Source: Psammoneis japonica (taxonomy: Eukaryota). From it: a DNA stretch of 64,000 bases. The notes below the pieces were generated by a model. That model had not been told where the DNA came from. It saw only the letters and a list, made by a program, of their open reading frames with translations, and made no database searches. Below are positions 21,436 through 40,959 of this stretch, one piece after another. The DNA is taken from the NCBI GenBank assembly GCA_008632985.1, contig QPGO01000047.1:124001-188000 (forward strand). Reading direction: 5' to 3'. The translations under genes and the position numbers were made by a program. Numbering within the stretch: position 1 is the stretch's first letter; each line of letters begins with the position of its first letter.

Positions 21436-21742
21436 GTGTTGACAGGGCTGTGATGCAATGTCATAGAGCAAAAAATGAAAACGCACGAACCAAAGCGCCA
21501 TCAAAGAACGTGAAGTGGCTTATGTAGTTTCTGACCACGACATTTCACGTTAATGACCCTCGTCTGGCCGCCACCGAAAACATCAAAAACAATTCTGATT
21601 TTGTCATTTTCATTTGACGAAATCTACAGGAAACGCTGGTAGAATTTCTACGTAGAATTTATCTTATGTAGCGCGACGCAATAGCGCGATAGTCGCACGA
21701 AGTCATCACACGCGCAGTCATCGGCAGATCTTGATCGGCACC

Positions 21743-24278
21743 ATGGCGTCTTCTCTTTTGCGAACGAGCGTTCGACGTTGTGTGACGACGGGTCGTATCA
21801 CACCACGGCGTAATGATTTTATCAATAAGAGAGTGTTTTCAAGTAGTAGTGTGGCTGCTGCAGTGTCAACATCGTCTGAGCAACACTATGAGGATTCGTC
21901 TCGCGCGTCATTGCCGTGGATGGGAGCAGCAGCGGCGGCGGCACTGGCAACTGCATTGAATACTGACAACAACAACAAGGCAGAATGCTGCGGAATTGCA
22001 GGTGTTGTTGGGGGAGATAAGGACGATGCCAGGTAAGATACTTATGGCCGAACGAATTCGCCGGACGCTGTGTTCCCGGTGTACTTGATTAATTTGATCA
22101 TAGACGTGCAGAGGAAGCGCAGGGATTACCATAAGTGAGGCGTTGATCATACTTACATCATCAAACTTGCTCTTGTTCTATTTTAGACAATTTCTTTTGG
22201 AAGGACTGACTATTCTCAAGAATCGCGGCTACGATAGCGCCGGACTAGCTACGGTCCCGGTAGAGGGCGGAGCCATGGTATTGACAAAGTACGCCAGTGA
22301 CGGAGACAAGGCTGATAGCATTGAATTAGTAAAGTCCAAAAGCGAAGCTTCTTCGGGCCATCCTATTGGTATTGCTCATACGCGTTGGGCCACTCACGGA
22401 GGAAAAACAGATGAAAACGCGCATCCTCATACGGATTCTTCTGGCAAGATTGCTCTGGTCCATAACGGTACTCTGAACAACGCAAATGAGTTACGGAAAG
22501 AACTCCAAGACCTGGGCCACGTTTTTACGAGTCAAACGGATACCGAAGTCATTGTCAAACTCATTGGTCATATCCGAGATAAGGACCCCAGCAATATCTC
22601 TGTCAAGGATGCTACTCAGCTCGCCTTGGATCGCTGTGACGGTACGTGGGGCCTCTGCATCATGTGCTCTGACACACCCGACGAACTTGTGGTGGCGTGC
22701 AATGGATCACCCATGGTGTTGGGGATTGCCCACAATCGTACCTTTGTTGCGAGTGAAACGTCGGCCTTCAATCGGTACACCAAGAACTTTATCAGCATGA
22801 AGGATGGAGAGATTGGTGTTTTGCACGCTGACGGACGAACTTTGGATTTGACGCGCAAGCAGAAAGCGCCTGATCACAAAGTCGAATTGTCGCCAGATCC
22901 ATTTCCTCATTGGACGCTAAAGGAGTAAGTTGTAATGGTTGTATGTGTCGCTACTGTAAGTTAAAGGCAACGGGCTTACCCTTTTGGATCACCTTGTTCT
23001 CGCTCAGAATGACTGAGCAACCTGAAGCCATGGCTCGAGCCCTGGGATTTGGCGGTCGGTTGGCTCCTGACAAGGTCTTGTTGGGTGGACTGGATAGTAA
23101 CTTTGACCGCATGTCTAAGATCCGTCTCTTGACTCTGAGCGCCTGTGGAACGAGTCTCAACGCAGCCAAGTACGGGGAACGACTCATGAAGCATTTGGGA
23201 TCCGTTGACAGTATCGTGTCCATTGACGCTGCAGAAACTGGCCCTGATGATTTTCCTGTCTGCAAGGAAACGTCAGAAAGTGGTGTCATTGTTATTTCGC
23301 AAAGTGGGGAGACCAAGGATGTCCAACGTGTCGTGTTGACTGCCATGGACAAGGGTGTGACAGTGATGAGTGTGGTCAATGCCGTGGGTAGTCTCATTGC
23401 GCGCACCACAAAGCTGGGAGTTTACTGCAACGCCGGACGGGAAAATGCGGTTGCATCGACAAAAGCATTTACGACTCAAGTTACTGTACTAGCACTTATT
23501 GCATTGTGGTTTCGCGAAGCCCGTGACAAGCTCGAGGGCTTGGCGCCCTCTCAAGAAGCGGTTCGTCTCAAGGAGGCACTCATGCGGCTGCCCATTACTT
23601 TTGGAATGACCATGAAATCGCGTGACAAATGCCGTGAAATTGCCAAACGACTGGAAAACAAGGAACATTGTTTCTTATTGGGCAAGGGGTATGGCGAACC
23701 GGTGGCACAAGAAGGAGCGCTGAAAATCAAGGAAATGTGCTACCTTCACGCAGAGGGGTACAGCGGAGGCGCACTCAAGCACGGGCCCTTTGCCCTGATT
23801 GAGAACGATGAGACGGGAAAGAATGGTGCGACCCCAATCATTATGCTCGTTCTCGACGATGAGCATGCCCAGCACATGCGTACTTGTGCGGAGGAGGTAA
23901 GTTTTTGGCAAGAGAGTAACAATCATGGGATTGCCGGGCCTGCACTCATGATGCTGGCGTTTATTTATCGTGTAGGTCAAGGCTCGGGGTGCTGAGATTA
24001 TAATTATTACGGACAAGGCTAGCCTTGCACAGGGTTTGGACGACGATCCTATTCTCATTCCGTCCAACGGTCCAATGACTGCTCTTGGTGCCGTGCTACC
24101 GTTGCAACTGATTGCTTACGAACTTGCTATGCTACGGTGAGTTTAAGTTGTGCTGCCCTTTCATATTTTGAAGCAAATCGGCTCTTCCTCTCATCAAGCG
24201 TGTTTATGAATTTGTTAATGTAGTGGCATCAATCCGGATACTCCACGAAACTTGGCCAAAGCAGTTACTGTAGACTAG
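21743..24278 (+). CDS. glmS: Glutamine--fructose-6-phosphate transaminase (GFAT) with N-terminal presequence, 5 exons
   Basis: Motifs [53 protein letters not shown] and C-terminal [11 protein letters not shown]. Introns 22033-22186, 22925-23007, 23897-23975, 24137-24223. Confidence 0.95.
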
Positions 24279-24802
24279 GGGGGTTACTTGTGATGTTGAG
24301 TTTTGCTTCCATGTAGTCCGTAGTTGAGTAATTTAGAGTCTATTCCCATCTCTAGTGCTGCAAGGCGACGTAGCAAAGGATGTTTCTCTTGACTTATCTA
24401 CGGAGCATTGTTTGTACGGTGTGAACTAGATGAAAGCAGGGTGATCCGTAGCAGCTTCTGCGACAAGCGCAGGTAATCGGCCGCGGGGAATGTGTCGCTC
24501 CACCCTCCACCAAAGAGAAGCTCTATCCATTGTTTATTTAACTCACAGCCAGAGGATTCCTTCGTAGTGTGTTGTGTACTTAAGCCATCTCTCCTCCTCC
24601 AGCACACTATCATCCCGCCCACGCCTTCAGTCATTACAAAACAATCATCGTCTTTCGAATCTAGCTCTATAGAAGTAACAGTGGACTAGAAACAAGCAAA
24701 TGAAGAGGAAGTAATCATGTAGAAGTCGGACTATATAGTACTTGGCTGTTCATTCTAATACAAGTAGCTTGATTTTGGAATGCCTTGTAGCCACTCCTCA
24801 TC

Positions 24803-25201
24803 TTAGAACGCGATACTCCAAAGGTCATTGACAAGAAGCGCCAGGCCAAAATAGCGGATTATCGCCAAGGCAATGGTTGGCCATGTGGGGTATCCAAACG
24901 CCGTGCGACTCCACACATATCCAACCTGGCCCAAAACTGCAAGGGTCGCTCCTTTTGAGGCTTGGTCGTCTTGAAGTGAAAGAAACAAGAGAATCGCCGT
25001 CAAGAGTCCTGCATATTCGGATTCGTTGTTGACCGCCTTTTGATACTGCTGAATGCTAAATTTGGAACTGATGCGACTCTTGCGTTTCGGATCCCATTCC
25101 AGAAACTGGTAGGTGCGGAGTGTGAAACTGAGCAGGACCCTTGTCATGGTGGCGTGGGCGGCAATGAGAGTTGCTCCTTGGAGGGCAGTGAAGAACGTCA
25201 T
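24803..25201 (-). CDS. Small membrane protein, MAPEG-like
   Basis: 132 aa with about 4 hydrophobic helices. YQKAVNNESEY resembles the MAPEG helix-2 R.H.N..E motif. Confidence 0.55.
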   Translation of the reverse strand: MTFFTALQGATLIAAHATMTRVLLSFTLRTYQFLEWDPKRKSRISSKFSIQQYQKAVNNESEYAGLLTAILLFLSLQDDQASKGATLAVLGQVGYVWSRTAFGYPTWPTIALAIIRYFGLALLVNDLWSIAF

Positions 25202-25538
25202 TATTGCTTTGGTGAAGTAGGTTTTTGTCGTTTAGAGTAGCGAAAGCCTTTTTTGTGACAGAACAATCATTGCTAATGTGATACAACGATAGTCTCCAGC
25301 GTCCTTCGAAGAAGCTTGGTCCTTTCTGCCTGAGCAAATTTCACACTCAGCGCCCGCGCAGCGCCCAGAGAAATGAGCGCGAGAATACTGTAGAAGTCTA
25401 CGCCACCTATTGGGGATTGATTACATTTATTCAGATATGTTTACTTATTTTAAATTTTGAAATGTTTGATTGATTGGAACTCCCTCCACGCCGTCTGCTT
25501 GTCTGCCCTCTACTGTACAAAGCTAGTATTTCCTGGTT

Positions 25539-25550
25539 GATGACGTCATC
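25539..25550. promoter_or_regulatory. Palindromic CRE-like element GATGACGTCATC in a divergent promoter
   Basis: Perfect 12-bp palindrome containing TGACGTCA, between two divergent genes. Confidence 0.35.
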
Positions 25551-25684
25551 TCCGAACCCAAATTTTTTGCTTGACACGAAGTTGAAGTGTCACCTCATTT
25601 TTTACGACGCGAAAGATTCGTTCATTGTTCTGGTTACCCCTAACATACACCAGATCATCGATAGGAGACTTTCAGACCAGAGTA

Positions 25685-26589
25685 ATGTTCTGCATCAAGA
25701 AGCTTACGTTAGGGCTTGTTGCCAGCGTCATCTTCGCTTCAAACTGCGTCGACGCTAGAGTGTTTGCACCACGCAGCAACGCGTTGAGGATCAAGGGACA
25801 AAAGCATGCTAATCTGGAGAACTCGAACGTGTTACAAATCCGAGGTGGGGCGGGCCCTTGGATCCCATGTTGACCGCCAAAGTGGTCACGGGAGCTGGCT
25901 TGGCATCTGGTCTCTATTCACACTTGGCTCCTACAAAATCCAACGAAGCTTACGGTCTCACGAGCTCATCGTACACGGTCGAGTGGTTGACGAGCGCATT
26001 TGGGTTGGGTCTAATCGCATATTCCATCTTTTCGTACTGTCTGCTTGTCAAGGATACAGGCGTGAACTTAGCGGTGGGTTATGCATTGATTCCTTGGGTT
26101 ATTGACAATCTTCGCCAGGTGCTTAATGGCGATGAAAGCGACGCCATCAAAGCCGGGTTCGGAAATGAAGGGTTTGTATTTGCCTTGGCGTTGAACGCTC
26201 TTACGATGTATGGCTCCACACAAGACTGGGCCGACAAGATTGTCAAAGTCACAGCCACCGTATGGGGTTTGTCTGGACTTCAGATGGCGTTGGCTCCGCA
26301 GTCAGCGGCCAAGTCGTGGGGTGCAAAGGAGGATCTTGATATCGCGGGCAAGAGCTACATGCGGAGTATGGGTTTCTACTTGTTAGCCCACTATGTCCCA
26401 ATTCTCTCCATTATCTTTAAAGATACTGCTCCTTTAAAGGCATTTGGTCTGGGCTGTGTTAGCTGGTTCGCTTCGATGGCTACTCAGCTTTTCATCACGA
26501 AAGACGTTGAGAATTTGGGACTTCCTTTGGGCCCCATGTACTTTTGGTTGGTCTTTCACGCTGTGGCAATTGGAACGATCCTCTTTTGA
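25685..26589 (+). CDS. Multi-pass membrane protein with signal peptide; apparent 1-nt frameshift near 25857
   Basis: MFCIKKLTLGLVASVIFASNCVDA...LQIRGGAGP continues in another frame as LDPMLTAKVV..., giving an RGGAGPLDP junction once one base is restored. Confidence 0.7.
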
Positions 26590-26804
26590 GACTTTATCCC
26601 TGGGGCCTACATGTTTCATATTTCACGACCAAAGGTTCAACGAAGATTTACAAGATCCGAACTCATGTACGCGTCGAATTCGTCTGTGATTAGTTATGAT
26701 GAGCAATTACAATAGATACTGATGCAACTACTACTGGAAACTAGTATGCCTTACATGCTTAGAGTCAATCGCCAATTCAGAACTCCCTATGAATTTCGTA
26801 CTCT

Positions 26805-28445
26805 CTAGGCGGTGTGCTTTGACTGAAAACCACAAACTCCAACAGGCGCAGGCACGCCTTTAAGCGTAAGTTCCGTTTCTCTTGTTTGTTGAAACGACCC
26901 GCTTTCCAATAGTTTTTCGAAAGCCGTTGTGGCAGCAGATTCCTTCAGAACGTCTTTTGTCACGAGGCACTCTCCGCCATTTGCCTTGCCTTCAATCCGT
27001 GCCGCAACATTAACAGTAGAACCAAAGTAGTCGTTGATACCATTCAATGGCACAACCACGGCAGAACCTGCGTGAATTCCAACCCGAATCTGCAGCGAGT
27101 TGCCACTGGGGCGTTTGACTTTATGAATGGACTCGAGTGCCTCAGCCATTGCCAAAATGGCTGCTTCGCCAGACGAAAAGGCTCCCATGACGGCGTCTCC
27201 TACAGTCTTTACAATTCGACCTCGGCTTGCCATGGCTCCAAACAAAATTTCAAAATGATCTTGGATGACCTGCAGAGCTGCGCCATCGCCAGACGATTCG
27301 TACAAGTCCGTGCTGGACACAACGTCGGTAAAAACCAACACCACCTTTTTGATACCAAATCGTGATGACTTGGAAACGACTTGATCACCAAAGAGCCTCT
27401 GAAAGGAAGGGACGTGAAGACAGTCGGCAGCACTAGCGTACGGCTTGCGCTCCTCCACGGGTACGTAGTATTTTGTGTGATCGTCCTCTTCCAGATCCTT
27501 GTATACCCAAAGAGCCATGAGACTCTCCATGTCACACAACAAATCAAAGCGGACCTTTCCATGTTCCAACGTAAACGATTTCCGAACTGCTCCAGTTGCC
27601 GGTTGCTTGATTTCCGATGTCTTTAGTAGCAAACGAAGCGGCTCGTCATTTTCAACGGCGTCTCGTTTGACGTCCACAAAGCACTCAACCCTCGAAAATG
27701 GGCAATGTAGTCTGTATAGTCCTTTGGTCAGGGCTGGATGGGACTTGTCTTGTTCGCCATAACCAAACAAGTAGCTGTACTTGGTGTTGTTGGTAGTGGG
27801 AATTCCATACATAAAGTAGCGAAAAGAAGGCATGCGTGGAGACGAGGGAGAGTGCGGGCATTCCCAACCCGTTACTGGAAAATACATGACTTCTGGATCA
27901 ATCAGAAAGAAGATCTTGACTTGATCCAGCGTATCTGTTACATTTTGATTTCCACATAGGCCACAGGTTTGCGTTTTCGTCAAGTCATGCAGAGACGTCA
28001 CTTCCTTGGTCCCTCCAGCACACCGACTACATTCAGCGGACCACACCATTTCCATCAGTCCAGCTGTAGTTGCATAATTGAACTCTGTCAGCACAACGTC
28101 AAGCGGGAGATTGTTTTTGTTTGCAAATTCTCTAGGCAGAACTGGAATCAAGTGCTCAAATGTCGAAACGACTTGGCCCATCGCTACGACCTGAGCGGAC
28201 GTACAAACCATACAGGTGTTTTCTTCATCAGGTTCTTGATATCCATGCCCTCTTGCTACCGCGAGTGTTTCACGAAATTTGCTCCATACCTCTTCATTAA
28301 AGGGCGGATCCGACGGGTCACGTACGGATTCACGGCGACAGGCTTCGAGTCGCCGATCCAACAAGTCTAAATCGGCTGTAAAGGGCTCTCGTCCCTTCAC
28401 AATCCTTGTTCGGTTGTGAGGACGAGAAATGTCAATTTTGCTCAT
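26805..28445 (-). CDS. Class III adenylate/guanylate cyclase with N-terminal Zn-ribbon (DUF5939-like) region
   Basis: Cyclase motifs VFTDVVSSTDLY, IVKTVGDAVMGAF, RVGIHAG, DYFGSTVNVAARIE, LKG. CSRC...CGLC in the N-terminal half. Intronless. Confidence 0.9.
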   Translation of the reverse strand: MSKIDISRPHNRTRIVKGREPFTADLDLLDRRLEACRRESVRDPSDPPFNEEVWSKFRETLAVARGHGYQEPDEENTCMVCTSAQVVAMGQVVSTFEHLIPVLPREFANKNNLPLDVVLTEFNYATTAGLMEMVWSAECSRCAGGTKEVTSLHDLTKTQTCGLCGNQNVTDTLDQVKIFFLIDPEVMYFPVTGWECPHSPSSPRMPSFRYFMYGIPTTNNTKYSYLFGYGEQDKSHPALTKGLYRLHCPFSRVECFVDVKRDAVENDEPLRLLLKTSEIKQPATGAVRKSFTLEHGKVRFDLLCDMESLMALWVYKDLEEDDHTKYYVPVEERKPYASAADCLHVPSFQRLFGDQVVSKSSRFGIKKVVLVFTDVVSSTDLYESSGDGAALQVIQDHFEILFGAMASRGRIVKTVGDAVMGAFSSGEAAILAMAEALESIHKVKRPSGNSLQIRVGIHAGSAVVVPLNGINDYFGSTVNVAARIEGKANGGECLVTKDVLKESAATTAFEKLLESGSFQQTRETELTLKGVPAPVGVCGFQSKHTA

Positions 28446-28628
28446 TGTCGGTAGTATTTCTTGTTGCTTCCAAAAGCAATGCCAAATGCCATATCATCCG
28501 ACATCATCTCTGTAATAGCTCTATTCAAACATCTTCGCTAGCTAGTTCCAAGTTTGGCGGATGCGCTGCTGAGAAGAGATCCTTTCAAATTATCATATTT
28601 ATATCTTTTTCAATATAAAATTGAACGC

Positions 28629-28636
28629 TGACGTCA
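28629..28636. promoter_or_regulatory. CRE palindrome TGACGTCA in the divergent promoter of the cyclase and the CIA30-domain gene
   Basis: Exact 8-mer about 185 bp upstream of the cyclase ATG. Confidence 0.3.
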
Positions 28637-28766
28637 TCATCAAATTTCCAAAAAAATTGACTCACACAAAAAGATCAACGAAGTGCGAAGTGCACCGTGA
28701 AAGGTCAAAGGTGAAAAAGACACCGCTGAGCTGACCGCTTCATCATTGTTCCCAGGTACCGTAGCT

Positions 28767-30323
28767 ATGCCGCCAGCGTTAATGTCATTAAGCATGACGA
28801 TGGGAAACCTTTCATGGCGCCTCTTGATGGCAATGGCGATTGCGACGTCGTTCCTCTCTTATGCTTCCGCATACAACACAGACGCGGGAGCAATTGTTCT
28901 TGAATCGTTCCAAAACCCTCAACACAAATGGTCTGCGCTCAACGATCCAGTCATGGGCGGCAGGTCCAAGGGAACGCTTACGATTGAAAACGGCAGGGCT
29001 CATTTCAAAGGTAACGTCGCTATTGTTCCTTCGCTACAAGCTCCAGGCTTTATCACTATTCGTTCTCGACCTTTCAATGGTATTTATCCCGACATTTCTT
29101 CTTGCAACGCACTCACTATCGAATTGCAAGCCTACCAAGAGTATTCAGGATATCGTATTAGTTTTGGAAATGCTCATGTTCCGGGTGGGCGCTTTGCGTT
29201 TGGATACAAGTCGGATATGCCTGTGTCGGTGGAAAAAGGCATGCACACCGTGACGATTCCCTTTACAAACTTTACAGACAATTGGGACGATGCTACTGGC
29301 GACCCCAAGGTGACGTGTCAAGAGGATTCTAGGTACTGTCCTTCACTAAAGGCATTGCACAATGTTCAGACCATTAGTGTTTGGGGAGAAGGAGTTGAGG
29401 GGATTGTGGATTTGGAAATCAAGTCAATTGGAGCAAGCGGGTGTGCAGCAGACGCTGTAAAGGACGCAGCCGAGATGAACTGGAACGTCGACGAAGAAAC
29501 GATAGAGGAAGCGTCGGCCGAAAACCTCATCACATCTCATCTCCATAAGAACGGAAATTCCATTCTTATTGAAGACTTTGAAAATCCGTCCCTTACATGG
29601 TCTCAAAAGAACGATCCTGTCATGGGAGGTGAATCGACTGGGACTTTTCAAGTCAGGAATGGCGTGGGTGTATTTCAAGGCCAAGTCAAAATTGTTCCTT
29701 TCTTGCAAGCCCCTGGTTTTATAAAGGTACAAGCGAGTGGGGACTTTCCAGACGTATCGTCTTGTTCTGCCTTGGCTCTCCAAGTCATGGCGACCGAGCC
29801 ATACAAGGGTTTTCGGGTCAGTTTTGGTCTCAAGAGCGCACCGGGGAGCATGAAGTATATCCGTGGATTCAAGTCCGACATGACTGTTGTTGCGGACGGG
29901 TCATTTCATACTGTGCATTTAATGTTTGAAGACTTTACCGACAAGTGGGACCCCGCTACGGGGGATGCGGTTGTGACTTGCCAAGAGGATGCTCAGTTCT
30001 GTCCAGACCTGGAAACGTTGAGAGATATCAAGCAGTTTTCAATTCTGGGTGAGGGTGTCGCTGGCAAAGTGGAACTTTATGTTCGAACTATTCATGCCGT
30101 CAACTGTACTGCCGTTGGATCTCCTTTACCGACCCTCTCGGCGAGACTTACGTCAGTTCCTGCCATTAGAACTGAAATGGCAGCCCCTTTAGGACTCTTG
30201 GCTTTGGCAATTCTTATCTCCGTTTCTACAGTGGCTATGGCGCTACGACGTCGATCTCGACGTCTGTCGCAGGTCAACTACGAAGAAATCCAGCCTTCAA
30301 ATCCAGAAGGAAGTCTGGCTTAA
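28767..30323 (+). CDS. Type I membrane/secreted protein with two tandem CIA30 (NDUFAF1-like) domains
   Basis: Two copies of W...NDPVMGG.S.G...F.G.V.IVP.LQAPGF and F.D.WD.ATGD..VTCQED. Signal peptide, and C-terminal TM followed by RRRSRR. Confidence 0.85.
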   Translation: MPPALMSLSMTMGNLSWRLLMAMAIATSFLSYASAYNTDAGAIVLESFQNPQHKWSALNDPVMGGRSKGTLTIENGRAHFKGNVAIVPSLQAPGFITIRSRPFNGIYPDISSCNALTIELQAYQEYSGYRISFGNAHVPGGRFAFGYKSDMPVSVEKGMHTVTIPFTNFTDNWDDATGDPKVTCQEDSRYCPSLKALHNVQTISVWGEGVEGIVDLEIKSIGASGCAADAVKDAAEMNWNVDEETIEEASAENLITSHLHKNGNSILIEDFENPSLTWSQKNDPVMGGESTGTFQVRNGVGVFQGQVKIVPFLQAPGFIKVQASGDFPDVSSCSALALQVMATEPYKGFRVSFGLKSAPGSMKYIRGFKSDMTVVADGSFHTVHLMFEDFTDKWDPATGDAVVTCQEDAQFCPDLETLRDIKQFSILGEGVAGKVELYVRTIHAVNCTAVGSPLPTLSARLTSVPAIRTEMAAPLGLLALAILISVSTVAMALRRRSRRLSQVNYEEIQPSNPEGSLA

Positions 30324-30519
30324 AAAAGCTTTCGGCTAATAAGGTTTTATTCTAAGTTATGTACGCATGAAATACTAATGTATCTGCGCAGGGGCATGAA
30401 CTTATGTACCGGGAAGGAAGTATTCAATACAACGCATCTTCTAACCTTGTGCATGGTCATGAACCTCATGTAAGTACGTACGCAACATGAATGCATCTGC
30501 CAAGCATGGGCATCAATCT

Positions 30520-32232
30520 CTATTTGATGGCTTGGTCCACAATGATACCAATAATCACAGCAACCGCCGCAACGATGAGTACCCAAGCCCAGATATCCGA
30601 TGAGAATACGGTAGAGTAGTGAGTCCACACAGGCAAGTCTTCCTTTATCATCCGACGACGACTTTTGATCAAGAGCACCGAGGGGCAGACCGTGTAGCTC
30701 AGCAACGTGAAGATACCGCCGTATATGGCTAAGATGTCAAGTTCCTTCACAAACACGGCTCCAATCACTTGAGGAACGCTTGCGAGGAGACGGAAAAAAC
30801 TTCGTTTCTTCCAATCCAGATGTACTGCTATAGAGTTCTCGGGGTAGAGGAAGTCAATGATAATTTCACTTAAAGAAATTGCAATCAACGGAAATACCGC
30901 CAAGCTATCCATTGCGGCAAACAAGACAATGTATCCTCGAAGTAAGCTCGCCCAACCAGGTCGATTGGGCTCGGCTGAATGATACTCTTCCCAATTAAGA
31001 TTGCTGCTTTCTTGCATGTTGTCTCGTCCAAAGTAAATACTGAGGACCAACGCTAGAATCAAGTTTGAGACAAAGATGAAGCTCACCCCGACTTTAAAGA
31101 TGGGTATAATAATCTTCTTGTTGTGACTAATGCTTGCAGTCATTGGAACTGCAAACTGAAACGCTGTAGAAAAGATAGCCGTCTGTATGACAAGAATCAA
31201 GTATCCAAAATCTGCCAATGGAATGTCATCGACAGGTCCGACTTGTGTTCCAAATTGAGGAACACTAGATACATATCCCACAGCCACTGTGGCGAGCATG
31301 AGTGCCACCATTACGAGCCGTGCTCCCAAAAAGATGAGCTGAATGAAAAGCTGGTCCAGAATTGGAACCAACGTGAGCGGACTGGTAACCGCCATGAATG
31401 CAAGAACATAGATCTTATAATCCATATCCCCACTTCCAAATGGAAGAAAGCCCGCAAACGTAGCACCAAAGACGGATGCAAACAACCAGGTGATTCCATA
31501 CAAATCTCCCATGAGCGCAACCGTGAAGAAGATGGTGGGCCATTTACCGAGAAAGATGTGCGAGAGTTTGGTTAACTCGTACTTTCTGGTCCGAACTGCC
31601 ATGGAATACCTCCTTCCATTGATTCCTCGGAGGCTCCTTTCTCCGGAAGGAAGGATTTCCGAATTAGCAAGAGCCTCTGCTCGCGCGCATGTGTTCAGTA
31701 CAAACGAAGAAGTAATGAATGACTGAAGGGCAACGCAAGCAAAGACAATCGTCGACAAGAGGGTTCCCGCCTTTGCAAAGGCATGGGGTAGGAGCAAGAA
31801 CCCGGCGCTGACGTAGTTGATGACAATGCAAGTCAGAGTATAGCGTGATAGTCCTGGTTTGGGGTCCACTACGCTCATGGTCATGATGGAATTGATGGAT
31901 GTGGTTGAAGAACGTCGTCGAGGAGAACTGGCAGTTTCGTCTGAAGAGCGAGGGAATGCTTCGGGAATATCACTCTCTGTCATTGTAGATCCATAGAGTA
32001 GCCCAGGGCGTCCATTCAGTGCTCGACCAGAGTCATTATCATCTACTACGATCTTTCTGTCGTCGTTCGTCATTTCTTGTTTTAGATCTGCTTGGGCCGA
32101 GGAGGAATCACTGTCTCCACTGACTCCTACTGATATATCTTCCACCGGACATGAAACGGTTTCTGGTACTGGTTGACCAATAGCGGTCCATTCCTCGCCC
32201 GGTGAAGGGCCTGAACTAGCATCAGTTGCCAT
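30520..32232 (-). CDS. Amino acid transporter-like protein (AAAP/TMEM104-like)
   Basis: INYVSAGFLLLPHAFAKAG, YELTKLS..FLG, about 11 hydrophobic segments, acidic N-terminal tail. Confidence 0.85.
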   Translation of the reverse strand: MATDASSGPSPGEEWTAIGQPVPETVSCPVEDISVGVSGDSDSSSAQADLKQEMTNDDRKIVVDDNDSGRALNGRPGLLYGSTMTESDIPEAFPRSSDETASSPRRRSSTTSINSIMTMSVVDPKPGLSRYTLTCIVINYVSAGFLLLPHAFAKAGTLLSTIVFACVALQSFITSSFVLNTCARAEALANSEILPSGERSLRGINGRRYSMAVRTRKYELTKLSHIFLGKWPTIFFTVALMGDLYGITWLFASVFGATFAGFLPFGSGDMDYKIYVLAFMAVTSPLTLVPILDQLFIQLIFLGARLVMVALMLATVAVGYVSSVPQFGTQVGPVDDIPLADFGYLILVIQTAIFSTAFQFAVPMTASISHNKKIIIPIFKVGVSFIFVSNLILALVLSIYFGRDNMQESSNLNWEEYHSAEPNRPGWASLLRGYIVLFAAMDSLAVFPLIAISLSEIIIDFLYPENSIAVHLDWKKRSFFRLLASVPQVIGAVFVKELDILAIYGGIFTLLSYTVCPSVLLIKSRRRMIKEDLPVWTHYSTVFSSDIWAWVLIVAAVAVIIGIIVDQAIK

Positions 32233-32954
32233 GGTGATGGTGGAGATCGTTTCGTGACAAGTGACAAGTGAAAGCGTTGACACTTTATTGTGGAAGCCTA
32301 CCATACACGCATACTGTACAACGAACCTTCGTACGTATCCTGATCGTGGCTTCAAGTTGAAGAACAATGAATGACGTAATCGACTGCAATGGTACTGTAC
32401 GACGTGTGCGTTCTGTAACTATTCTCTAATGAGAGCTTTTATAACTGCAAGAAACACCATTTTTGTCACAAATAATAAATGATAAAAAGGTCTAGTAACG
32501 GCAAATTGTGTCTTCTAACTTGTGTTGCGAAAACCGGTCAACAGGGAGACGTCATTGGTGGACATCATGGCATGATGGATGGAAGTCTTCTTTCGCCGCT
32601 TCCTTTTCGGCTCCTCACTTCCCACCGCTCGCTCTCAACCCGCGCCTCCCTGGCAGTCTCCCGCTGCTCTCCACAACTCTGATGCCTCCTGCTCTGCCTT
32701 TCTTCATGCCCCCTCCTCCCCTGCGCTGACTTCACCTGCTGCTGCGGAGCCCACCTTGGCACCACCGATCGCTTTGGCAGCACACATCGCTCTGCATGCC
32801 AAGCTGCAAGCAGCACCCAGTGCCACCTCTCTTCTTGTGCCACTTGGTTCCTTCCCCTGCCCTGTCCACACACCAAATGCCCTGCTGCTCGTCGCTGTGC
32901 CCCCCTCTGTCACCCCCCCGCAGCCACCACCGCCGCTCTGAGACAGCTGCCTTG

Positions 32955-33200
32955 ACACCATTTTGCACCCTTGGCAACATTGTGCCCTTGGCCACCTTGT
33001 GCTTTCTGTTGTTTTGAACCCACAGCCACCATTTTGCACCCTTCTTAATTTTGCGACCTTTCGCATTTTGCACATTTTGAGATTTTTTGCCCTCGGTTTG
33101 TGCCCTTGGCAGTTTTGCGCCCTTTGAAATTTTTGCCCTTGGCCATTTTGGGCTCTTTGTCATTTTGTGCCATGAGCCACAATTTTGCCCCCTCTGAGTT
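32955..33200. repeat. Cluster of short ttttgc(a)ccctt(ggc) motifs
   Basis: About 8 variants of tgcccttggc / ttttgcaccc in about 250 bp. Confidence 0.65.
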
Positions 33201-33840
33201 GGCATGCTGAGTTGCACCCCAAAGTTGGCATGCCAAGTTTTCCCCCAAAGTTCGAGTTTGCCAAGGTTCGACACACCTGTGGCAAGTCGCCCACGTGTTT
33301 GCCTCCCAAGCCAGCAAATTTTGGTGGTTAAATTTGGGTTTGTGTTTTGCTTCTTTGGAAAATGTCTCATTTTCATTGAGATGAGTCGGCTTGACAACTT
33401 GTGCCATTTTGTGGGGCTGAATGAGTTGTGAAGGTGTCTGCCCACATGTCAGTCATGTGTTGTGATTGAAATCATGGGGAGTCACTTTTGGGTGTTCTTT
33501 GGCGACCATGATTGTGTTTTAGAACTTTGACTCCAAGGCTTTCAACCAATCTGACCTCAAATCCATCACTGCAGACTCCTCAAGCAAACTGTGGAGTGAC
33601 AGGATTTGAACAAAATTTCAGTTCATCACACATGATCATGTGTGCTCGCAGCTCCGCACGCAGCACATGATGCACTTTGCTTTCAAGCCACTTGGCTCAC
33701 AAGAACGACAACAACAGCTCTGACATCATGACACCAGTCTTTTGACTCCTGTGGTGGTCTCTGCATGGAGACTCATCTGCTGTTTAGACAGCAGTGAGGA
33801 GTCATTGTTTTCTTCCACCCAATCATCTTCAATTTCTGTC

Positions 33841-33930
33841 ACTTGCCAAACTCGCCAAACTTGCCAAACTCACCAAACTTGCCAAACTCATCAAACTTGA
33901 CAAACTTGGATGCCTTGCCAAACTCGAAAA
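33841..33930. repeat. 9-bp minisatellite (AAACTYRCC), about 8 copies
   Basis: acttgccaaactcgccaaacttgccaaactcaccaaacttgccaaactcatcaaacttgacaaactt. Confidence 0.9.
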
Positions 33931-33999
33931 ACTCACACCGCTGCAACAACAATCCTGGGCCAAAGCAGAAAAGTCAAGGGGGGGTCATCCCCACATTCA

Positions 34000-35230
34000 T
34001 CCCAAAATGGTGTTTGTTTCCGAATGCAAAAAATTGTTTGCATTCACACCAGATCATGCAAAAAATGAGAACCACCAGGCACTGCAGTCAAAGCATGACA
34101 ATGATGCAATCATCAATCTTTCTTGAAAACACAGCGGGGCAACCACAAACTTTTGATCCACGTGTGATCTTTGACACAAAAAAGGAGCACAGCTGGAAGA
34201 TTTGGTGTGTCAGATGTGACGCTGATGATGCCCCCAGTGTCAGAAGGTTTCTCCAGCTCGTTGACCTCTGCTTCACAATGGGCACCCTTTTCAGCTTCAC
34301 TGTCATCATGAGAGCCCCTCTTCGTCATCCAAAACTTTCTTCTGTGCCTCTTCTGGCTGGGTCTCCCACACCACAAAGCCATCAACAGAAGCTTTTTGCT
34401 TCAGAGATGCTGGGGTTTCTTCTTCTGTCTTGTTCATTGTTGCTGGCTTCATCCTTTGCTGCATCTTCAGCACCACCTGTTGCTGCTTCTGGCTCTTTTG
34501 CAGGCACTTGGTTTTCTTTGTGATTTTGCAACGGATTTTTGGTGCTGTGTTCTGGGGTTGGGGGGAAGCTGTTGTTTGGAGCATCATCCTGTTCTGCATC
34601 TTCAACACTGCCTTTCACTGCTTCTGGCTCTTTTGCAGGCACTTGGTTTTTTTGTGATTTTGCAGTGGAACTTCCGGGAATCATTGTTTGGAGCATCATC
34701 CTGCGCTGCATCTTTGACACCACCTTTTGCTGCTTCTCTGGCTCTTTTGCAGGCACTTGGTTTTCTTTGTGATTTTGCAATGGATCTTTTGGAATCTTGG
34801 CACTGTCTTCTGGGTTTGGGTGGGAGTTGTTGTCTTGGGCATGTTCAGAGTTAAAATGTGCAGCACTGACTGTGCCATGTGGGTCCATTGCTGGGTCCAT
34901 TGTGGCTGACTCTTCTTTGTCTGTGACGTGTTCAGATTGGATGTGAGAAGTGCAGACTGTGCAATTTGGGACCATCGCTTGCTCCATTTTGCCCGACTCA
35001 CCTGACCAAATGGCACTGCTTTCCATTTTGTCCTCCTGGGCAGGTTCTTCAATTTGTGGACCTTCCTGCTGGTGCCCAGCCAACAACTGATTTTTGTCAT
35101 TGTGCTCAGCGTCTGCTCTGTCTTGAGACTCACCCTTGCACTGGCACTTCTCAAACCCACCTTTGTTGACCTCTCTGCACTCACATGGCTTGTGATTGAG
35201 GAAACTTCCAGCAGATGAGTGTTGCCTCAA
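34000..35230 (-). pseudogene. Relic low-complexity acidic protein with 3 internal KENQVPAKEPE repeats
   Basis: ORF 34382-35230 repeats K(E)NQVPAKEPE. DNA motif ctggctcttttgcaggcacttggtttt occurs near 34489, 34624 and 34738. No Tyr. Confidence 0.55.
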
Positions 35231-36666
35231 TCATTCTTGCACACTCTTCCACTGATTTTTCATCCTTGTGGCATTCGTGGAAGTGGTTGCAGTCGCTGCA
35301 ACTTTTGTCATCATCAAACACACAAATTGGCGCCTGCCCCCCCCCCCCACACAATGCAGATCAACCAGAAATGCAGATCAACCAGATTGGATGGTGCTGG
35401 AAACTTGTTTTTGGCAGGGCCAGCATCTGAACTCTCAAGCTTGTCACTGGTGCTGTCATGCCTTGGAACCTGTCAGGCTGGACCCTCTCCTCTCTAACAC
35501 CATGCCTCTCATTTCCATGGCACTTGTTTTCCAGATGCTTTGTTTCTCAGAAAGAGCATCAAGGCTGCAGTGCAGAGGTGCACAACAGGGGGCAGACTTT
35601 GTGACCCTGTGTTTGGGGCAGCTCCCAATTTGCCTGCATCTTGCCGTGTCATTTTGGAGCAGGTGGAGATTGTGTCAGCCGGCCCCTGCACCAAATTCCT
35701 GATTTTTGTTCCTGTGTGTTTTGTCATCCAGCCCACAAGTGGCTGAAGCTGGCAACTCAAGCAGAGGTGCCAAGTTTGCCCCCTCTTGCTTGCGTGCATT
35801 TGTTTCATCCTAAACATGCACCAGGCAGGTGCCCCAACCTCCATGCTGTGGAGCCAAGCTGGTGCTGCGTGGTTGTTCGTGCCTCCCAACAGACAACTGG
35901 CTGGCACCCTTTGGTTTTTCTGCAACTCAGCTTTGACTGTTGAGAGGAGTGCTGCTGCCCCTGCTGTTTTTGCTTCCTTCTGTGTGTCCTCCAGCTGCTG
36001 CCTGGCCAAGTTTTTTGACATCCCTGTGGCACAACCTGCAGACTGAAGCACCGCCCACCCCGACTCGGAGAGTGCTGCATTTTGCGCGCACTTTTGAGTT
36101 TGTGAGAGGGCATCAGCCAATGCAAGCATGTCTCAGCCTGTGTTTGAGTTTGTGCTGGCACACCTTGTGCTGCATTTTCCTTCCAAAATTTCAGCATGTT
36201 TTGGCGTTTGAACAAACGCCGCCTGTGTGTGATGGTCAACACGGTGCACCACAATGCTGCTGGCACACTGCTGAAAAAGTTGCTCTGGTTGTTCTTGCTG
36301 GACCCTTGCAAGTGCAGCACGATGCCAGGCACAAAATAATGACAGATGCTGCGTGACACGAAAACAAAGAGAAGCCAGCTTTGCACAAAAAAGTCACACA
36401 CAACAAAATTGATGTGTGTCGTGAAAGCATGATGTGGCAACAAGTGATCTAAATATCCGGGTTTCTTCCCGATAGATTTATGAGAACCCCATTCGGCATG
36501 GCTGATGTGTGAGTTCGCGCGAAGAAAAGTTTAGCATACTTTCTCACAAAGTCCGTTTATTATCATGCTCATTATGAATATCTTTATAAAACGGGTTCGG
36601 ATTCACATTTTGAGAGCTCTGTCAGCAAAAATCCACATCAAAAGTGGGAGACAATGAACTTCACCC

Positions 36667-38220
36667 ATGACGCCGAATGCGACTGATCCATGTATCACAA
36701 AGAACCCACCGACCGGCGCAGAGGCAGCTGAAGACGCTGATAAAGACCAGGCGGCATCTCGCGACGAAGACAGCAGTCAAAGCCTCAAAGCGAGAGCTGA
36801 AATGCCAAGTTCACGAATAGAGAAGCCTCCAGATCTTGTCAAGGAAGCGAGTTCGAAGCATCCTCATTCTAGTGATTCGACATTGAAAGATTCTGCTGAT
36901 AATCCTTCACGTTGCTTTGGCAAGCCCTCCAGACCAGAGAAGAAACCGGATAGCACTGAGAAGAAGGTCTCCACCAAGCCGCCTTTTCTGCAGACCAAAG
37001 CTGACAGAAGAGATCCACTAAAAGCTGCGGAACAGAAAGATCCACCTAAAACTGAACGAAAAGAAGATCCCCCAAAAGCAAAGGAAGAGAAGGGTGCGCC
37101 TAAACCCTCAAACAAACAGTCACCAGCTCCACCTTCCATTCCTCACGTCACACCGCTTGTACAATCGCTTCCAGATCCTCCTCCGCTTTCTCCACAGCAC
37201 GATAAACCCCCCGTAGCCCCAGGGAAGAAGAAAAGAATTCCGCACGTCTACCATGATTACGCTTCTGTTCCTGACTCTGTTGGGTTTGTCCGAAAAAAGA
37301 CGGGTGGCGTTACTACGGCTTTTCCTGAAAAGTTGCATGACATGCTAAGTGGACAAACTGACTCGACCATTGTTGGGTGGTTACCACACGGGAGAGCCTT
37401 TATCGTTCGAAAGCCGAAGGTCTTTACGACAGAAGTCATGCCTAAATTCTTTCGTCAAACAAAGCTCACGTCGTTCCAACGACAATTGAATCTATATGGT
37501 GGGTTTTTAACGTTGTTATTCCGACGATGTGACTCTTGTAACTGCTCCTCACTGTCTCTTTACCCTTACGTCACTCACCCACTCTCCTAATTCCTTTCAG
37601 GCTTTAGGAGAATCACACAAGGTCCTGATGCCGGTGCATACTATCATGAAAAGTTTCTAAGGGGGCGTCCTCAGTTGACCATGCGAATGGTTCGACAAAA
37701 GGTCAAAGGAACAGGTCACAAGCAGCCAGCCGACTCAGAGACGGAGCCTAACTTTTATGCCATGCCTCATTTATCAGACGACTCATCCACAGCTCCTTGG
37801 ATGGGATCGAGCTCAGATGGATCTGCTGTATCTCCCTCTCAGCAGCCAAATAGTCCTGGCCTGCAAGGATTGCATGGTGCAGCTAATCTTCTCAAGGGTA
37901 TTGCCGCTGGGATTCCACCGGGGTGGACACTGGCACCGACAGTGGCAAGCACGAACACATCCAACGAATCCTCCGCCACTACCACGACAGCTTCACTGTA
38001 CTCGTCTACGCATACATGGGATACAAGGCCTCGTAGTTCCGCTGCACCCCACAGTGGGACCAAGAATAATGCTGCTGCGTTCAAACCGGCGCAGTTTTTC
38101 GGAGAAGCTACTGCAAAGGATTCGACAGCAGCCAAGTCGACGACAAAGACGGATGACTCTTCAGCCATGCCGTCAACGTGGGATTCTCATAAAGGGAGCT
38201 TGAAGGAAGAGAAGGCATAA
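36667..38220 (+). CDS. Heat shock factor (HSF)-type transcription factor, 2 exons
   Basis: GGVTTAFPEKLHDML, WLPHGRAF, KLTSFQRQLNLYG. Intron 37499-37600 continues FRRITQGPDAGAYYHEKFLRG. Confidence 0.93.
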
Positions 38221-38435
38221 GATAATACTATAGGGGGAGTGTTTGGATGCTCGACAATGTTTGTTATAAAATAACTTAGAACTAAAACAATAGCGAGACC
38301 ATCAGAGACGCCCATGAAAAGCGATAATCCAAGACAGACTGCTATCGTCGACCAACGAATGACTGCGTCTACCATGCAGGGAATAATATAACGGTAGATC
38401 GGAACCAGTCACCATGATGTTCAACTACCTCCACC

Positions 38436-40959
38436 TCAAAAGCTCTCCGATCTCTTCAGCCGAAGCTTGTCGCGAATGCCACCAAGAGTCCAACCATTGC
38501 AGGCGGGCCCCAACATGAGCTGTCCATCTAGAGAGCTAGCTTCAGAAACAGTATCCGAGCAATCATCAGACTTGATAAATGCGCTTCTGTCCTTGAGATC
38601 GCCAAGCATGGGAGCGTCTGAGGCTCTGGACGAATAAGATTTCATTGACGCTTCTTCACTGGCACAGCTCTGAACACTAGACTGCAAGAGCGTTCCATAC
38701 ACGTGAAGTTTGAGTTCGGTAGGAGCCATTTCCTTCGACATGATCTTGTCGTGGCCCAACCAAGGGTTTTTTTTCACACTAGGACTGGCGCCCACGGATT
38801 TGGACGTTTGCATCGGGTAAACCTTGCTCAGGTTGGGACTGCTACGATTACGCTCCAATCGCTGTGTCTGCGGAACGACCTCAGTTGGAGACAGCAAGCC
38901 AGCTTGGTGCATATCAAGTGAAACATCCTGAAGAAAAAGAAAGCGTGTGCAACCATGAGCAAAGAAACGAGCTGGCAAGTCAGTGTACAAGTATCAGCTG
39001 AGAGTACTCACCTTGGCTTCTTCATCTTGGTCATCAGCACCGTCTGCTTCCATCGACTCTGGTTCTTCATTAATAGCGACGGTCGCAAGGTTGACGCCTT
39101 CAAATCCTCCCAAGATTTGCTCCATGCCAACGTCGCCGTTACCCGTTTCGGACATGCCATCAAAATTCTCTGACATCCTACTTGCGCCATCAGTTGTGTT
39201 TCCGTCCTGTACAAAAGGAAAAAGACGGAATTGAGGATTTGAACTGCTTGGGAACACTGGCCGTATCATAGAGCGACAATCAACATACCTCCAAGTCGTA
39301 CAAATAAGACACGCTGTCCGCCATGCTCATTGGCGGCTCATTGGGAGATCCTGCTTCATCCCCATCAACAGATTCCTCCACTACCGACTCCTCACGTCTG
39401 CGTCGTTGCCGACGCACAAGGAAGAATGCGAGAATGCACAGCAACGCGAAAAACGTAATCAGCGGCCCAATCAAAATCCGTTTATCAAAGCCTTTAGAGG
39501 AGCCATTCGTGTGCTTCTCCCCAGTAGCACCCGAAACATTGGAACCTTGCGATGGACTCGGAGTCGGTGCAGTTGATGGCGCTTTCGTTGGGGAGTCCGT
39601 TGGAGCGCGAGTGGGAACACTTGAGGGGACCGAACTAGGTTGGCTGCTTGGAACAGAGGAGGGTACGGCCGAGGGTGCAAATGAAGGCGAAGACGAAGTC
39701 GTGGGAGAAATGGAAGCCGACGGAGCAGACGACGGCCGCGAAGAAGATGGCTGAAAGGAAGGCGTAAGAGAGGGACCTGGAGTGATCGACGGAGCAGCAG
39801 TGGGCGACAATGAAGGTGCTAGCGAAGGACCAGGACTTGTAGTTGGTTCGCGGATCACCACTTCATTCCCGTCCAGCTCTTGACAAGTAGTGCTTCCAAT
39901 GACATTTGAGAATATCCCGCATTCCAAACACGGTTTTTCGTCGCTGATCTGCCTTCCCTCGGTAGGTTCGTAGTATCCAGCAGGGCAGGCAATAACATCA
40001 CAGCCAAACGTGTTCGGTGAAATATCATTCAGCTCGGTTTCAACGCACATTCCCGCAGGGATCTCTCCGGTCAGACCGAGGTCACGGATACGAAAGTGAG
40101 TCAACTGCATCTCTCCAAAACAACTTGGAAGCTCACCCACAATCTGGACATTGTCCGAAATATCGAGAGCATCCAAGTCTTGAATGGAACAGAGAAGTGA
40201 CGGCACAGTGCCGGTCATATTGTTACTATGCAGGTGAAGGCGTCTCAAAGTCGGAAACATGCCGGGTTCAGCAGGGAGCTCTCCGGTAAGCTTGTTGCGA
40301 CCAAGATTCAACTGGCGAAGCTCCGCCAAAAACAACAGGCTTGATGGCAACGGCCCCTCGAGATCGTTCTTGAGGGCCTTGAAGCGACGAAGACGAGTAA
40401 ACTCGCCCATACTCGAAGGAAGAATACCCGACAAGGCCATTTCATCAAGGTCCAGAAAGATTACATAACCTTCGCTATCGCATGTGACCCCCTCAAAGTC
40501 GCAGTACGTCGTGCCTGGAGAAAACCAATTGTCCAAACGAGAGTCCTCGACTCCGACAGAATCTGCAAACTTCTGCAAAGCGTCCGTTTGAAGCACGGCA
40601 ACGGGTGCGGCAGTTCGAGTCGGTGACGACGATGGACTTAGTGACGGAGATAGTGAAGGTACCATTGATGGTTCGGCTGATGGTGACAACGAAGGGGCAG
40701 CAGTTGCCGAAGGAGAACCCGAAGGTACGGTGGATGGTGAGAGAGAGGGAGCAAACGACGGCTGAGACGTGGCCACGCTAGGCGCAGCCGACTCAAGACG
40801 CCGCGATTCCATCAGTTGATTTACATCAAAGGAACCAATTTGATCGGTAACACTGTTAAAGGCCTTTGCAGTAGCACCGTCCCCAAGAGAACGACCTTCC
40901 GCAGAGAGTGCCGCGACGCCAACCGCCGCGACAGGCAAGAAACTCAGATTAAAGCGCAT
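38436..40959 (-). CDS. LRR receptor-like type I membrane protein with Pro/Ser/Thr stalks and no kinase domain, 3 exons
   Basis: Signal peptide, PS.SPS repeats, C.FEGVTC cap, L.G.LP LRRs, TM then RRQRRRR. Introns 39288-39207 and 39011-38928. Confidence 0.85.

Follow-up and report, generated by a model that had tools for sequence, protein, structure and literature searches.

Saturated loss of TpA dinucleotides in four sharply bounded blocks of a diatom nuclear chromosome points to a regional TpA-directed mutational process

Introduction

What kind of process could remove almost every TpA dinucleotide (TA) from a sharply bounded part of a nuclear chromosome? The question is raised by a 64-kb stretch of 48% GC from the diatom Psammoneis japonica (assembly GCA_008632985.1, contig QPGO01000047.1, positions 124,001 to 188,000 of the forward strand), hereafter called the window. 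A block at 32520-36449 (B3) is nearly free of TA, and three sister blocks, B1 (6390-9520), B2 (20340-21400) and B4 (53365-58660), carry the same signature; together the four blocks make up 21% of the window. The results reported here point to a regional mutational process that changed TpA to TpG or CpA in place, and an adenine deaminase acting on DNA may be its agent.

A sequence-only reading of the window had proposed such a conversion as a candidate genome-defence system and had stated that no eukaryotic defence with this signature was described. To our knowledge, no eukaryotic process that removes TpA specifically was known before 2026. The statement is now outdated by a preprint of that year on the chlorarachniophyte Bigelowiella natans. 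In mutation-accumulation lines of this alga, 231 of 302 nuclear mutations fell in two integrated viral regions, one of a nucleocytoplasmic large DNA virus (NCLDV) and one of a virophage. Of these 231, 230 were A>G or T>C changes, every one of them on a TpA, and the rate of ~6e-7 per site per generation was about 1000-fold that of the background (Mettrop et al., bioRxiv 10.64898/2026.01.13.699255). The available text of the preprint also reports 124 genomic clusters poor in TpA and rich in CpA plus TpG, as well as 324 low-TpA coding sequences with a mean TpA frequency of 0.0018 and an enrichment of transposase and reverse-transcriptase domains, and it proposes an ADAT2 homologue as the agent (bioRxiv 10.64898/2026.01.13.699255). 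A TpA-removing process is thus already known, very recently, from one organism, and the diatom is a second, ecologically major lineage.

Results

Four blocks of the window are nearly devoid of TA

The window holds 2039 TA in total, with a median spacing of 16 bp. Expected counts in the blocks were calculated with the P(A|T) of the flanks (0.150), and significance was estimated by a binomial test. Only 8 TA were present in B3 (33046, 33329, 33520, 33785, 34852, 35495, 35811 and 36337) against 176 expected (binomial log10 P = -68.9), and the longest run without TA was 1067 bp. Mononucleotide shuffles of B3 (n=1000) averaged 237 TA and never fell below 194. The observed/expected ratio (O/E) in B3 was 0.03 for TA, 0.30 for CG, 1.74 for TG and 1.77 for CA. 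The sister blocks behaved likewise, with 13 TA versus 110 expected in B1, 5 versus 42 in B2 and 22 versus 185 in B4. The TA O/E was therefore 0.03-0.08 in the blocks (B1 0.06, B3 0.03, B4 0.07) versus 0.58 in the rest of the window, and the O/E of TG and CA was 1.4-1.8 in the blocks versus 1.2 outside. At the block edges, both edges of B3 included, the switch in TA was complete within 100-200 bp; the right edge of B2 was fuzzy, reaching to about 21500.

These counts agree with what the sequence-only reading had noticed by eye. The eight TA of B3 were recovered at exactly the positions it listed, the abrupt edges were seen again, and its three further blocks were found with limits that are refined here. 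It had also said that the blocks hold repeats and relic genes. Tandem arrays were present in all four blocks (Tandem Repeats Finder (TRF) plus repeat search), and relic genes were found in B2, as a leucine-rich repeat (LRR) array with frame breaks, and in B4, as a Tyr-free open reading frame (ORF) of 444 codons.

Composition, strand symmetry and sequence context of the change

To describe the composition of the blocks, flank DNA was given two changes only in a simulation, context-weighted TA>TG/CA plus CG>TG/CA. The simulated and the block trinucleotide log-ratios were correlated with r=0.99 over the 64 trinucleotides, and with r=0.76-0.82 over the 48 that lack TA and CG. The largest trinucleotide gains were close to the predicted ones (log2 observed versus predicted, GCA/TGC 0.80 versus 0.70; CAG/CTG 0.66 versus 0.55; CAC/GTG 0.65 versus 0.66). 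The blocks are host-like DNA plus TA and CG changes. A C-rich stretch of B3 (CCC/GGG +0.52) lies outside the predictions of this two-process model.

Both strands were affected, in an interspersed manner: the TG:CA counts were 304:358, 99:101, 458:386 and 489:503 in B1 to B4, respectively. A runs test for same-strand clustering gave z values of -2.0 to +1.7 in the blocks versus -0.4 to -2.2 in the flanks, indicating no clustering. The symmetry and interspersion of TG and CA argue against one-strand RNA editing passed on through a retro-copy, and also against long processive tracts on the same strand.

The survival of TA in each four-base context (NTAN, with N any base) was measured as the block count versus the flank count, with the ratio taken per base. 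GTAC (0 in blocks, 177 in flanks) and ATAT (0 and 119) did not survive at all (ratio 0 for both). Very low survival was also found for ATAC/GTAT (1 and 307, ratio 0.012), CTAC/GTAG (3 and 288, 0.039), ATAA/TTAT (4 and 307, 0.049) and ATAG/CTAT (4 and 214, 0.07). The ratio rose through GTAA/TTAC (9 and 261, 0.13), CTAG (4 and 105, 0.14) and CTAA/TTAG (9 and 144, 0.24) up to 0.81 for TTAA (14 and 65). When sorted by the 3′ neighbour of the A, with both strands counted, TA survival was 0.03 for T, 0.04 for C, 0.11 for G and 0.22 for A, and the NTAN ratios roughly matched independent hits on each strand. The effective target is 5′-TAY-3′ (Y, pyrimidine), hit far more than TAG, which in turn is hit more than TAA, and TTAA is nearly immune. 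The dinucleotide AA was undepleted, with an O/E of 1.16-1.55 in the blocks versus 1.15 outside. This fits a strict requirement for a 5′ T, and argues against the WA hotspots (W, A or T) of DNA polymerase eta (pol eta) as well as a 5′ preference of the ADAR kind, which also accepts A.

Contexts were also compared beside two blocks. Right of B4, positions 58661-61000 form a possible partly mutated zone, with a TA O/E of 0.25-0.32 and with resistant versus sensitive TA contexts of 8:9, compared with 210:604 in all flanks (Fisher p=0.052, uncorrected). Positions 36450-39000, beside B3, gave 14:19 against the same 210:604 (Fisher p=0.040, uncorrected). Both zones are intermediate in TA and could reflect early or partial hypermutation that extends into the isochorismatase/TTL gene region; the signal is marginal.

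The TA-free letters are present in contigs of a sequencing run

Three sequencing runs (X1, X2 and X3) were compared with the window over 20000-39999. X1 behaves as a deep DNA run with a word depth of ~57, from which contigs of up to 12.9 kb were built with exact 31-mers. Its contigs carried the TA-free letters of B3 over 31507-33562, 33861-34512, 34751-35275 and 35337-39999, with 3, 0, 5 and 9 differences from the window, respectively, and they carried TA-free sequence over all of B2. X1 and the window differed by scattered single-nucleotide polymorphisms, that is, some real variation had been sampled. An artefact of assembly, polishing or noisy basecalling is unlikely. The read check that had been suggested for this locus thus speaks against an artefact, with the caveat that X1 is possibly the assembly's own sample.

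The contigs of X2 skip GT..AG introns of 79-154 bp and are hence RNA-like. They cover 28783-32203 and 36697-39999. No X2 contig was placed inside B3 or the core of B2, which is not evidence of silence.

The left edge of B2 lies within a continuous LRR array

An LRR-coding relic (20191-20972, minus strand) made of 24-residue (72-bp) units and broken by stops or frame change runs across the left edge of B2. It matches LRR_14 of Pfam twice (E=6.6e-15 at 20191-20613; E=6.5e-9 at 20499-20972), and the array is continuous over the edge. Nine TA lie in 20111-20338, the final one, at 20338, preceding the block; none follows until 20649, and the unit outside B2 keeps a TAT Tyr codon at 20269-20271. A tandem array of 191-bp units (6273-6931) crosses the left edge of B1 in the same manner. 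Since the left edges of B2 and B1 lie inside an LRR array and a tandem array, respectively, these edges are not insertion junctions, and the mutation took place on resident DNA.

One RNA-like X2 contig (20057-20397) agreed with the LRR relic over its 3′ part, with no differences listed, and then continued into a 60-nt loose end unlike the window. This loose end may stem from splicing to an exon located elsewhere, from a paralogue or from a different allele.

A fossil ORF in B4 lacks tyrosine

B4 contains an open frame of 444 codons (56683-58017, plus strand), which includes 442 codons from ATG (56689-58014) plus the stop. With ~253 stops in B4, counted as TGA only, the chance expectation of ORFs of at least 444 aa is ~0.006. 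A HMMER search among 1.84 billion representatives gave 12 relatives (P0121-P0132), the best of which (E=1.1e-38) shares 33% identity across residues 72-342. This uncharacterised family combines a basic KKRR patch with a long coiled coil and, at the C terminus, a conserved module, 'W..SG..F..L.LEF.Y...LRKALK.FGFP.A...EIC.AVGI', which by eye we take to resemble a SAP-like helix-extended-helix motif. The family matched no Pfam family, a profile search of the PDB gave coiled-coil matches only, and a scan of IMG/VR with P0121 showed no relative. For the fossil ORF itself, a word-indexed search gave no match, a profile search gave only P0127 ('hypothetical protein') and a protein atlas gave no usable match. 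A single-sequence AlphaFold model had a mean predicted local distance difference test score (pLDDT) of 50.3, too poor for fold comparison.

No Tyr is encoded in the fossil ORF, versus 6.4 expected from the 1.8% Tyr of its relatives in aligned columns (P=0.0016). Among the 31 columns with Tyr in any relative, the fossil ORF has Cys or His in 4 (13% versus 3.7% background), which leans in the direction expected from TA>TG/CA but is weak. The distribution of TG and CA over the codon was also compared with neutral and selective expectations. At the 3|1 junction of codons, TG:CA was 61:45, with 54:46 expected under neutrality and 45:56 under selection; at codon positions 2-3 it was 35:34, with 47:39 and 54:32 expected, respectively. 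GTA (Val) was absent versus 6.8 expected, and GCA (Ala) was found 17 times versus 9.9 expected. These patterns look neutral, as of a gene decayed free of selection. The fossil ORF is still open because TA>TG/CA makes no in-frame stop (TAA becomes TGA or CAA; TAG becomes TGG or CAG). Dead genes in the blocks thus persist as open, Tyr-free fossil ORFs.

CpG decay is a second, separable component

A loss of CpG co-occurring with the loss of TA in B1 and B3 had been overlooked in the sequence-only reading. CpG was strongly depleted in B1 (45 versus 166 expected, O/E 0.26) and B3 (72 versus 246, O/E 0.30), weakly in B4 (254 versus 305, O/E 0.76) and not significantly in B2 (52 versus 62, O/E 0.78). 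The two losses in B3 are near equal, 168 TA and 174 CG sites, and its GC content stays at 0.50; a GC profile is blind to B3 because the losses cancel each other. TA loss has reached saturation in each of the four blocks, whereas CpG was lost in only two of them; therefore, TpA loss is separable from CpG decay and probably faster. A model of CpG decay only would fit the CpG depletion of B1 and B3, but it leaves the TpA loss unexplained, and B2 and B4 have lost TpA with near-normal CpG.

An X1 contig over 20000-23905 (3.9 kb) allowed allelic differences to be placed. Six of its nine differences from the window fall in the 1-kb B2; four of the six are CpG in the run and TpG or CpA in the window, one is G>A and one A>T. 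From this polymorphism, CpG decay in the blocks looks recent or ongoing, and its level in B2 seems elevated although the CpG O/E there is still 0.78. The older blocks, B1 and B3, would also have been methylated to 5-methylcytosine (5mC), leading to CpG>TpG/CpA decay. TpA loss would saturate ahead of this decay, as B2 and B4 are TA-less yet retain most of their CpG, and B4 is apparently the youngest block.

Contents and neighbourhood of the blocks

B3 fills the gap between two divergently oriented genes and stops ~100-250 bp from each, beside very TA-rich stretches, so that its limits look like a chromatin-domain boundary. It is a non-coding mosaic of minisatellites with units of 9, 17, 26 and 112-135 bp. 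No terminal inverted repeats (TIR), long terminal repeats (LTR), target-site duplications (TSD) or terminal direct repeats were found at its ends. B1 carries tandem arrays of 178-191 bp, and B2 a 227-bp tandem array plus part of the LRR relic. Within the window, none of 13 self-hits joined one block to another, and the blocks were likewise unlike their flanks in this self-comparison.

The stop codons of B3 on both strands are 11 TAA, 4 TAG and 175 TGA. Long open frames are expected by chance in the blocks because TAA and TAG are nearly gone. Pfam searches reached the cut-off for none of the 22 B3 ORFs of at least 90 aa and, in a first pass over block ORFs, the family cut-off for none of 11. 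A permissive pass over block ORFs of at least 90 aa gave 2 of 66 above the cut-off, both LRR in B2; the others gave nothing or noise below the cut-off.

Two repeats of the window keep their TA. One is a direct duplication of 864 bp with 88% identity (2-862 / 3561-4424), which spans coding sequence and has normal TA content. The other, a 233-bp tandem repeat (19318-19756; 1.9 copies, 77% matches), lies only ~600 bp from B2 and is uncommonly rich in TA (O/E 0.82-0.85). Over both, the TA O/E is ~0.5-0.85. These two repeats being untouched, repetition alone is insufficient as a trigger.

A 9-bp ACTTGCCAA-type satellite inside B3 (33841-33933) is highly repeated in the genome. The summed word depth of X1 was 37768 in 33340-34006 and 1185 in another bin, versus ~57 elsewhere, and many back-joining contigs were found at 33841-33908. 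The 17- and 26-bp minisatellites beside this satellite (32673-34006) are massively multi-copy, with more than 1000 X1 contigs at 88-99% likeness on the 20-kb stretch. With parts of B3 multi-copy, copies of blocks elsewhere in the genome are possible. In X3 (0.16 Mb of contigs), five contigs of 42-45 nt, on both strands and with short unlike ends, were placed at 33574-33612 in B3. These contigs may derive from small RNAs of this repeat copy or of a related one, in which case they would bear on the targeting of the blocks.

The flanks carry genes of ordinary eukaryotic families, namely DEAD-box helicase, CIA30, adenylate cyclase, LRR, SIS and TTL/isochorismatase. The best 120 relatives of the flank helicase had 41-57% identity, none being near-identical, and all those with an organism name were diatoms (Fragilaria, Amphora, Thalassiosira, Epithemia, Seminavis, Cylindrotheca, Nitzschia, Fistulifera, Chaetoceros and Bacillariaceae metagenome-assembled genomes). 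By this one gene, the window is assigned to a diatom or a very near ally. Five metagenome loci (~42 kb) anchored on helicase relatives contained no TA-free block, the lowest 1-kb TA O/E being 0.27, a sample far too small for inference. A scan of B4 for bacterial promoters and terminators, irrelevant for a eukaryote, gave nothing above shuffles.

Discussion

A regional TpA-directed process as the best explanation

The best explanation is that the blocks arose by a real, regional process of mutation directed at TpA, to which we assign a probability of about 0.85. The regional conversion of TpA to TpG/CpA suggested by the sequence-only reading is borne out by the two-process model, by a family member that has lost its Tyr, by an edge inside a coding array and by the precedent of B. 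natans. The blocks would be non-genic islands of the diatom nuclear chromosome, probably silenced, in which transitions hypermutated TpA in place to TpG or CpA, up to saturation and within the limits of a domain, on either strand site by site. The precedent of B. natans and the context of the blocks suggest that the agent may be an enzyme brought in by chromatin marks. Its likeliest identity would be that of a DNA-acting adenine deaminase of the ADAT/TadA class, converting A to inosine, read as G, at the A of 5′-TAY-3′ on either strand. The trigger would not be repetition as such, and may be silencing marks or small RNAs. We regard this full account, with deaminase and chromatin targeting included, as likely. 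Of the two agents named before, the TadA/ADAT class is kept, since it fits TAY and is also the candidate in the available text on B. natans, and pol eta is dropped, AA being undepleted.

Several observations weigh against this account and are gathered here. We infer the direction TA>TG/CA rather than polarise it by an outgroup or consensus copies. Comparisons of tandem units, across edges or within arrays, offer a handful of sites and give no discrimination. A paralog pair outside the blocks also shows TA<>TG/CA in 11 of its 20 TA-involving differences, and A>G on one strand is indistinguishable from T>C on the other. None of the six differences between X1 and the window listed within blocks (all in B2) is at a TpA site, and they lend no support to ongoing TpA mutation. 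In the fossil ORF, the most conserved Tyr column of the family (Tyr in 7 of 12 relatives) has Arg instead of Cys or His. One sample and one study gave all three runs (X1, X2 and X3), which are thus possibly the source of the assembly itself rather than an independent confirmation. As to defence against foreign DNA, none of the 66 block ORFs matched a viral or transposon Pfam family, although heavy mutation may hide their origin. With this result and two repeats in the window untouched, the genome-defence role proposed for the signature is unproven in this diatom.

Other explanations of the blocks

The same letters might arise from thymine chemistry. A TET/JBP-type dioxygenase would oxidise the T of 5′-RTA-3′ (R, purine) in silenced DNA to 5-hydroxymethyluracil or 5-formyluracil (5hmU/5fU), which mispairs with G and leads to T>C. 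Because TpA is palindromic, the sequence outcome is identical, and the O/E, context and simulation data fit equally well. Dinoflagellate 5hmU prefers TpA, and 5-formyluracil is mutagenic. On the other hand, the U before the target A in the native substrate of TadA/ADAT explains the strict 5′ T more directly. A dinoflagellate TET/JBP homologue converts T in DNA to 5hmU, an activity with a link to the silencing of transposons, but the term 'TpA' is absent from the available main text of that paper (PMC11572971). We consider thymine oxidation improbable, though it deserves to be named ahead of the other alternatives. Foreign or mobile DNA that was already TA-poor on arrival, mutated elsewhere (for example as ADAR- or ADAT-edited RNA/cDNA) or derived from a TA-avoiding source, would explain the abrupt edges, the unlikeness of the blocks to each other and to the flanks, and the lack of recognisable host genes in B1, B3 and most of B4. 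It is hard to reconcile with the left edge of B2 within a continuous LRR array whose outer unit has normal TA density, or with the left edge of B1 within a tandem array. The symmetric and interspersed TG and CA gains are unlike one-strand RNA editing, the 3′-Y context and the untouched AA are unlike the ADAR preference, B3 is without TIR, LTR or TSD, and the block composition equals that of the host flank plus two mutation types. An origin of this kind is quite unlikely.

Error-prone synthesis by a Y-family polymerase during repair in the blocks has in its favour that pol eta makes A:T>G:C changes at WA motifs. WA includes AA, yet AA is undepleted, and the loss is TA-specific and near-complete, which leaves this source very unlikely. 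The least likely of all is a technical artefact, in which a modified base was miscalled or assembly and polishing made the TG and CA letters. The common origin of X1, X2 and X3, possibly that of the assembly, could be taken in its support. Against it, most of B3 and the whole of B2 are equally TA-free in X1 contigs built from 31-mers at a depth of ~57 (0-9 differences per contig), and noisy reads would hardly yield contigs as long as 12.9 kb at such a depth. Moreover, the translations of the affected ORF and LRR array are coherent proteins with the expected residue substitutions, and the CpG<>TpG polymorphism in B2 looks like real allelic variation.

Meaning of the footprint

The same saturated footprint in a diatom suggests that such TpA loss probably occurs widely across the major phytoplankton of the sea, and it shifts the question toward a lineage with genetically tractable model species. 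The order TAY>>TAG>TAA, the immunity of TTAA, the separability from CpG decay, the apparently non-viral targets and the edges that ignore element boundaries all constrain the enzyme and its targeting signal. Annotators should take long open frames in blocks of this type for fossils left by mutation, and should expect GC profiles to miss the blocks. More speculatively, and with less than even odds in our view, TpA-directed hypermutation might be a dedicated genome-surveillance pathway shared across the SAR group (stramenopiles, alveolates and Rhizaria) or older, and active in diatoms. A TAY-specific ADAT/TadA-like deaminase would be recruited to 5mC- or small-RNA-marked islands of whatever origin, where it would erase Tyr codons and TATA-like elements and leave open dead ORFs, with TTAA immune. 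If true, fungal repeat-induced point mutation (RIP) would have its mirror image in this pathway, and adenine base editors a counterpart in nature. A natural context-specific DNA adenine deaminase would also interest base-editor engineering.

Comparison with known systems

Fungal RIP resembles the change in the blocks: it, too, hypermutates regions with sharp limits by transitions up to saturation, so that genes die and a dinucleotide scar stays behind. Its changes are C>T, chiefly at CpA, and create TpA (available text of PMC2621366). In the diatom, by contrast, TpA is destroyed (TpA O/E 0.03-0.08, CpA/TpG 1.4-1.8). RIP is also triggered by duplication, whereas the 864-bp duplicate (88%) and the 233-bp tandem repeat are untouched here. 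5mC-driven CpG decay matches the CpG>TpG/CpA loss of B1 and B3 (O/E 0.26-0.30) and the CpG<>TpG/CpA polymorphism in B2. Unlike the process at work here, it cannot remove TpA, and B2 and B4 are TA-less with a CpG O/E of 0.76-0.78. Neither RIP nor 5mC decay is thus the cause of the TpA loss, as had been argued from the sequence alone; the TpA excess and the duplication trigger of RIP were not found, and 5mC covers the CpG component only.

Editing by ADAR and APOBEC is similar in being a deaminase hypermutation of selfish nucleic acids. ADAR prefers U over A as the 5′ neighbour and G as the 3′ neighbour; its preference for a 5′ U is also stated in the available Discussion of the B. natans preprint (bioRxiv 10.64898/2026.01.13.699255). 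ADAR differs in acting on double-stranded RNA, and so on one strand of a retro-copy, whereas the diatom blocks have both strands interspersed, AA untouched and a 3′ order of T, C > G > A. APOBEC differs by its C>U chemistry.

TadA and ADAT2-ADAT3 target an A preceded by U (U33-A34 in the anticodon loop), and the native TadA substrate is U-A-C-G. The obligatory 5′ T and the TAC/TAY preference of the blocks match this native substrate. A natural, DNA-wide and domain-targeted activity of the class is undemonstrated in any alga; activity on DNA is known for amphioxus ADAT2 and for engineered TadA, as cited in the available text of the preprint (bioRxiv 10.64898/2026.01.13.699255).

The closest known system is that of B. 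natans. A literature search, with most subscription journals outside its scope, found no report of a TpA-loss signature in diatoms or elsewhere beyond this alga. The two differ in lineage, a chlorarachniophyte (Rhizaria) versus a diatom (stramenopile). De novo TpA mutations were measured in B. natans, whereas the diatom blocks are known from their sequence footprint alone. The targets described in the available text on B. natans are viral, whereas in the diatom blocks no viral or transposon domain was found (0 of 66 ORFs) and one target is a host-type LRR array. Two diatom blocks show strong CpG decay, and the blocks show TAY>>TAG>TAA with immunity of TTAA; neither 'CpG' nor these context preferences occur in the main text of the preprint as available, and the words 'diatom', 'stramenopile', 'trinucleotide', 'context' and 'TTAA' are absent from it too. 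When the B. natans cluster rule was applied to the window, the windows in 33001-36000 passed with Rho_TpA of 0.02-0.06 and Rho_CpA+TpG of 1.71-1.82. Two windows passed in each of B1 and B4, and none in B2, which is 1 kb long and split by the grid. As far as the preprint text goes, both systems share TpA>TpG/CpA on both strands, clustered regions, mostly unannotatable content and an ADAT-type candidate, and the TpA frequency of 0.0020-0.0047 in the diatom blocks is like the 0.0018 of the low-TpA coding sequences of B. natans.

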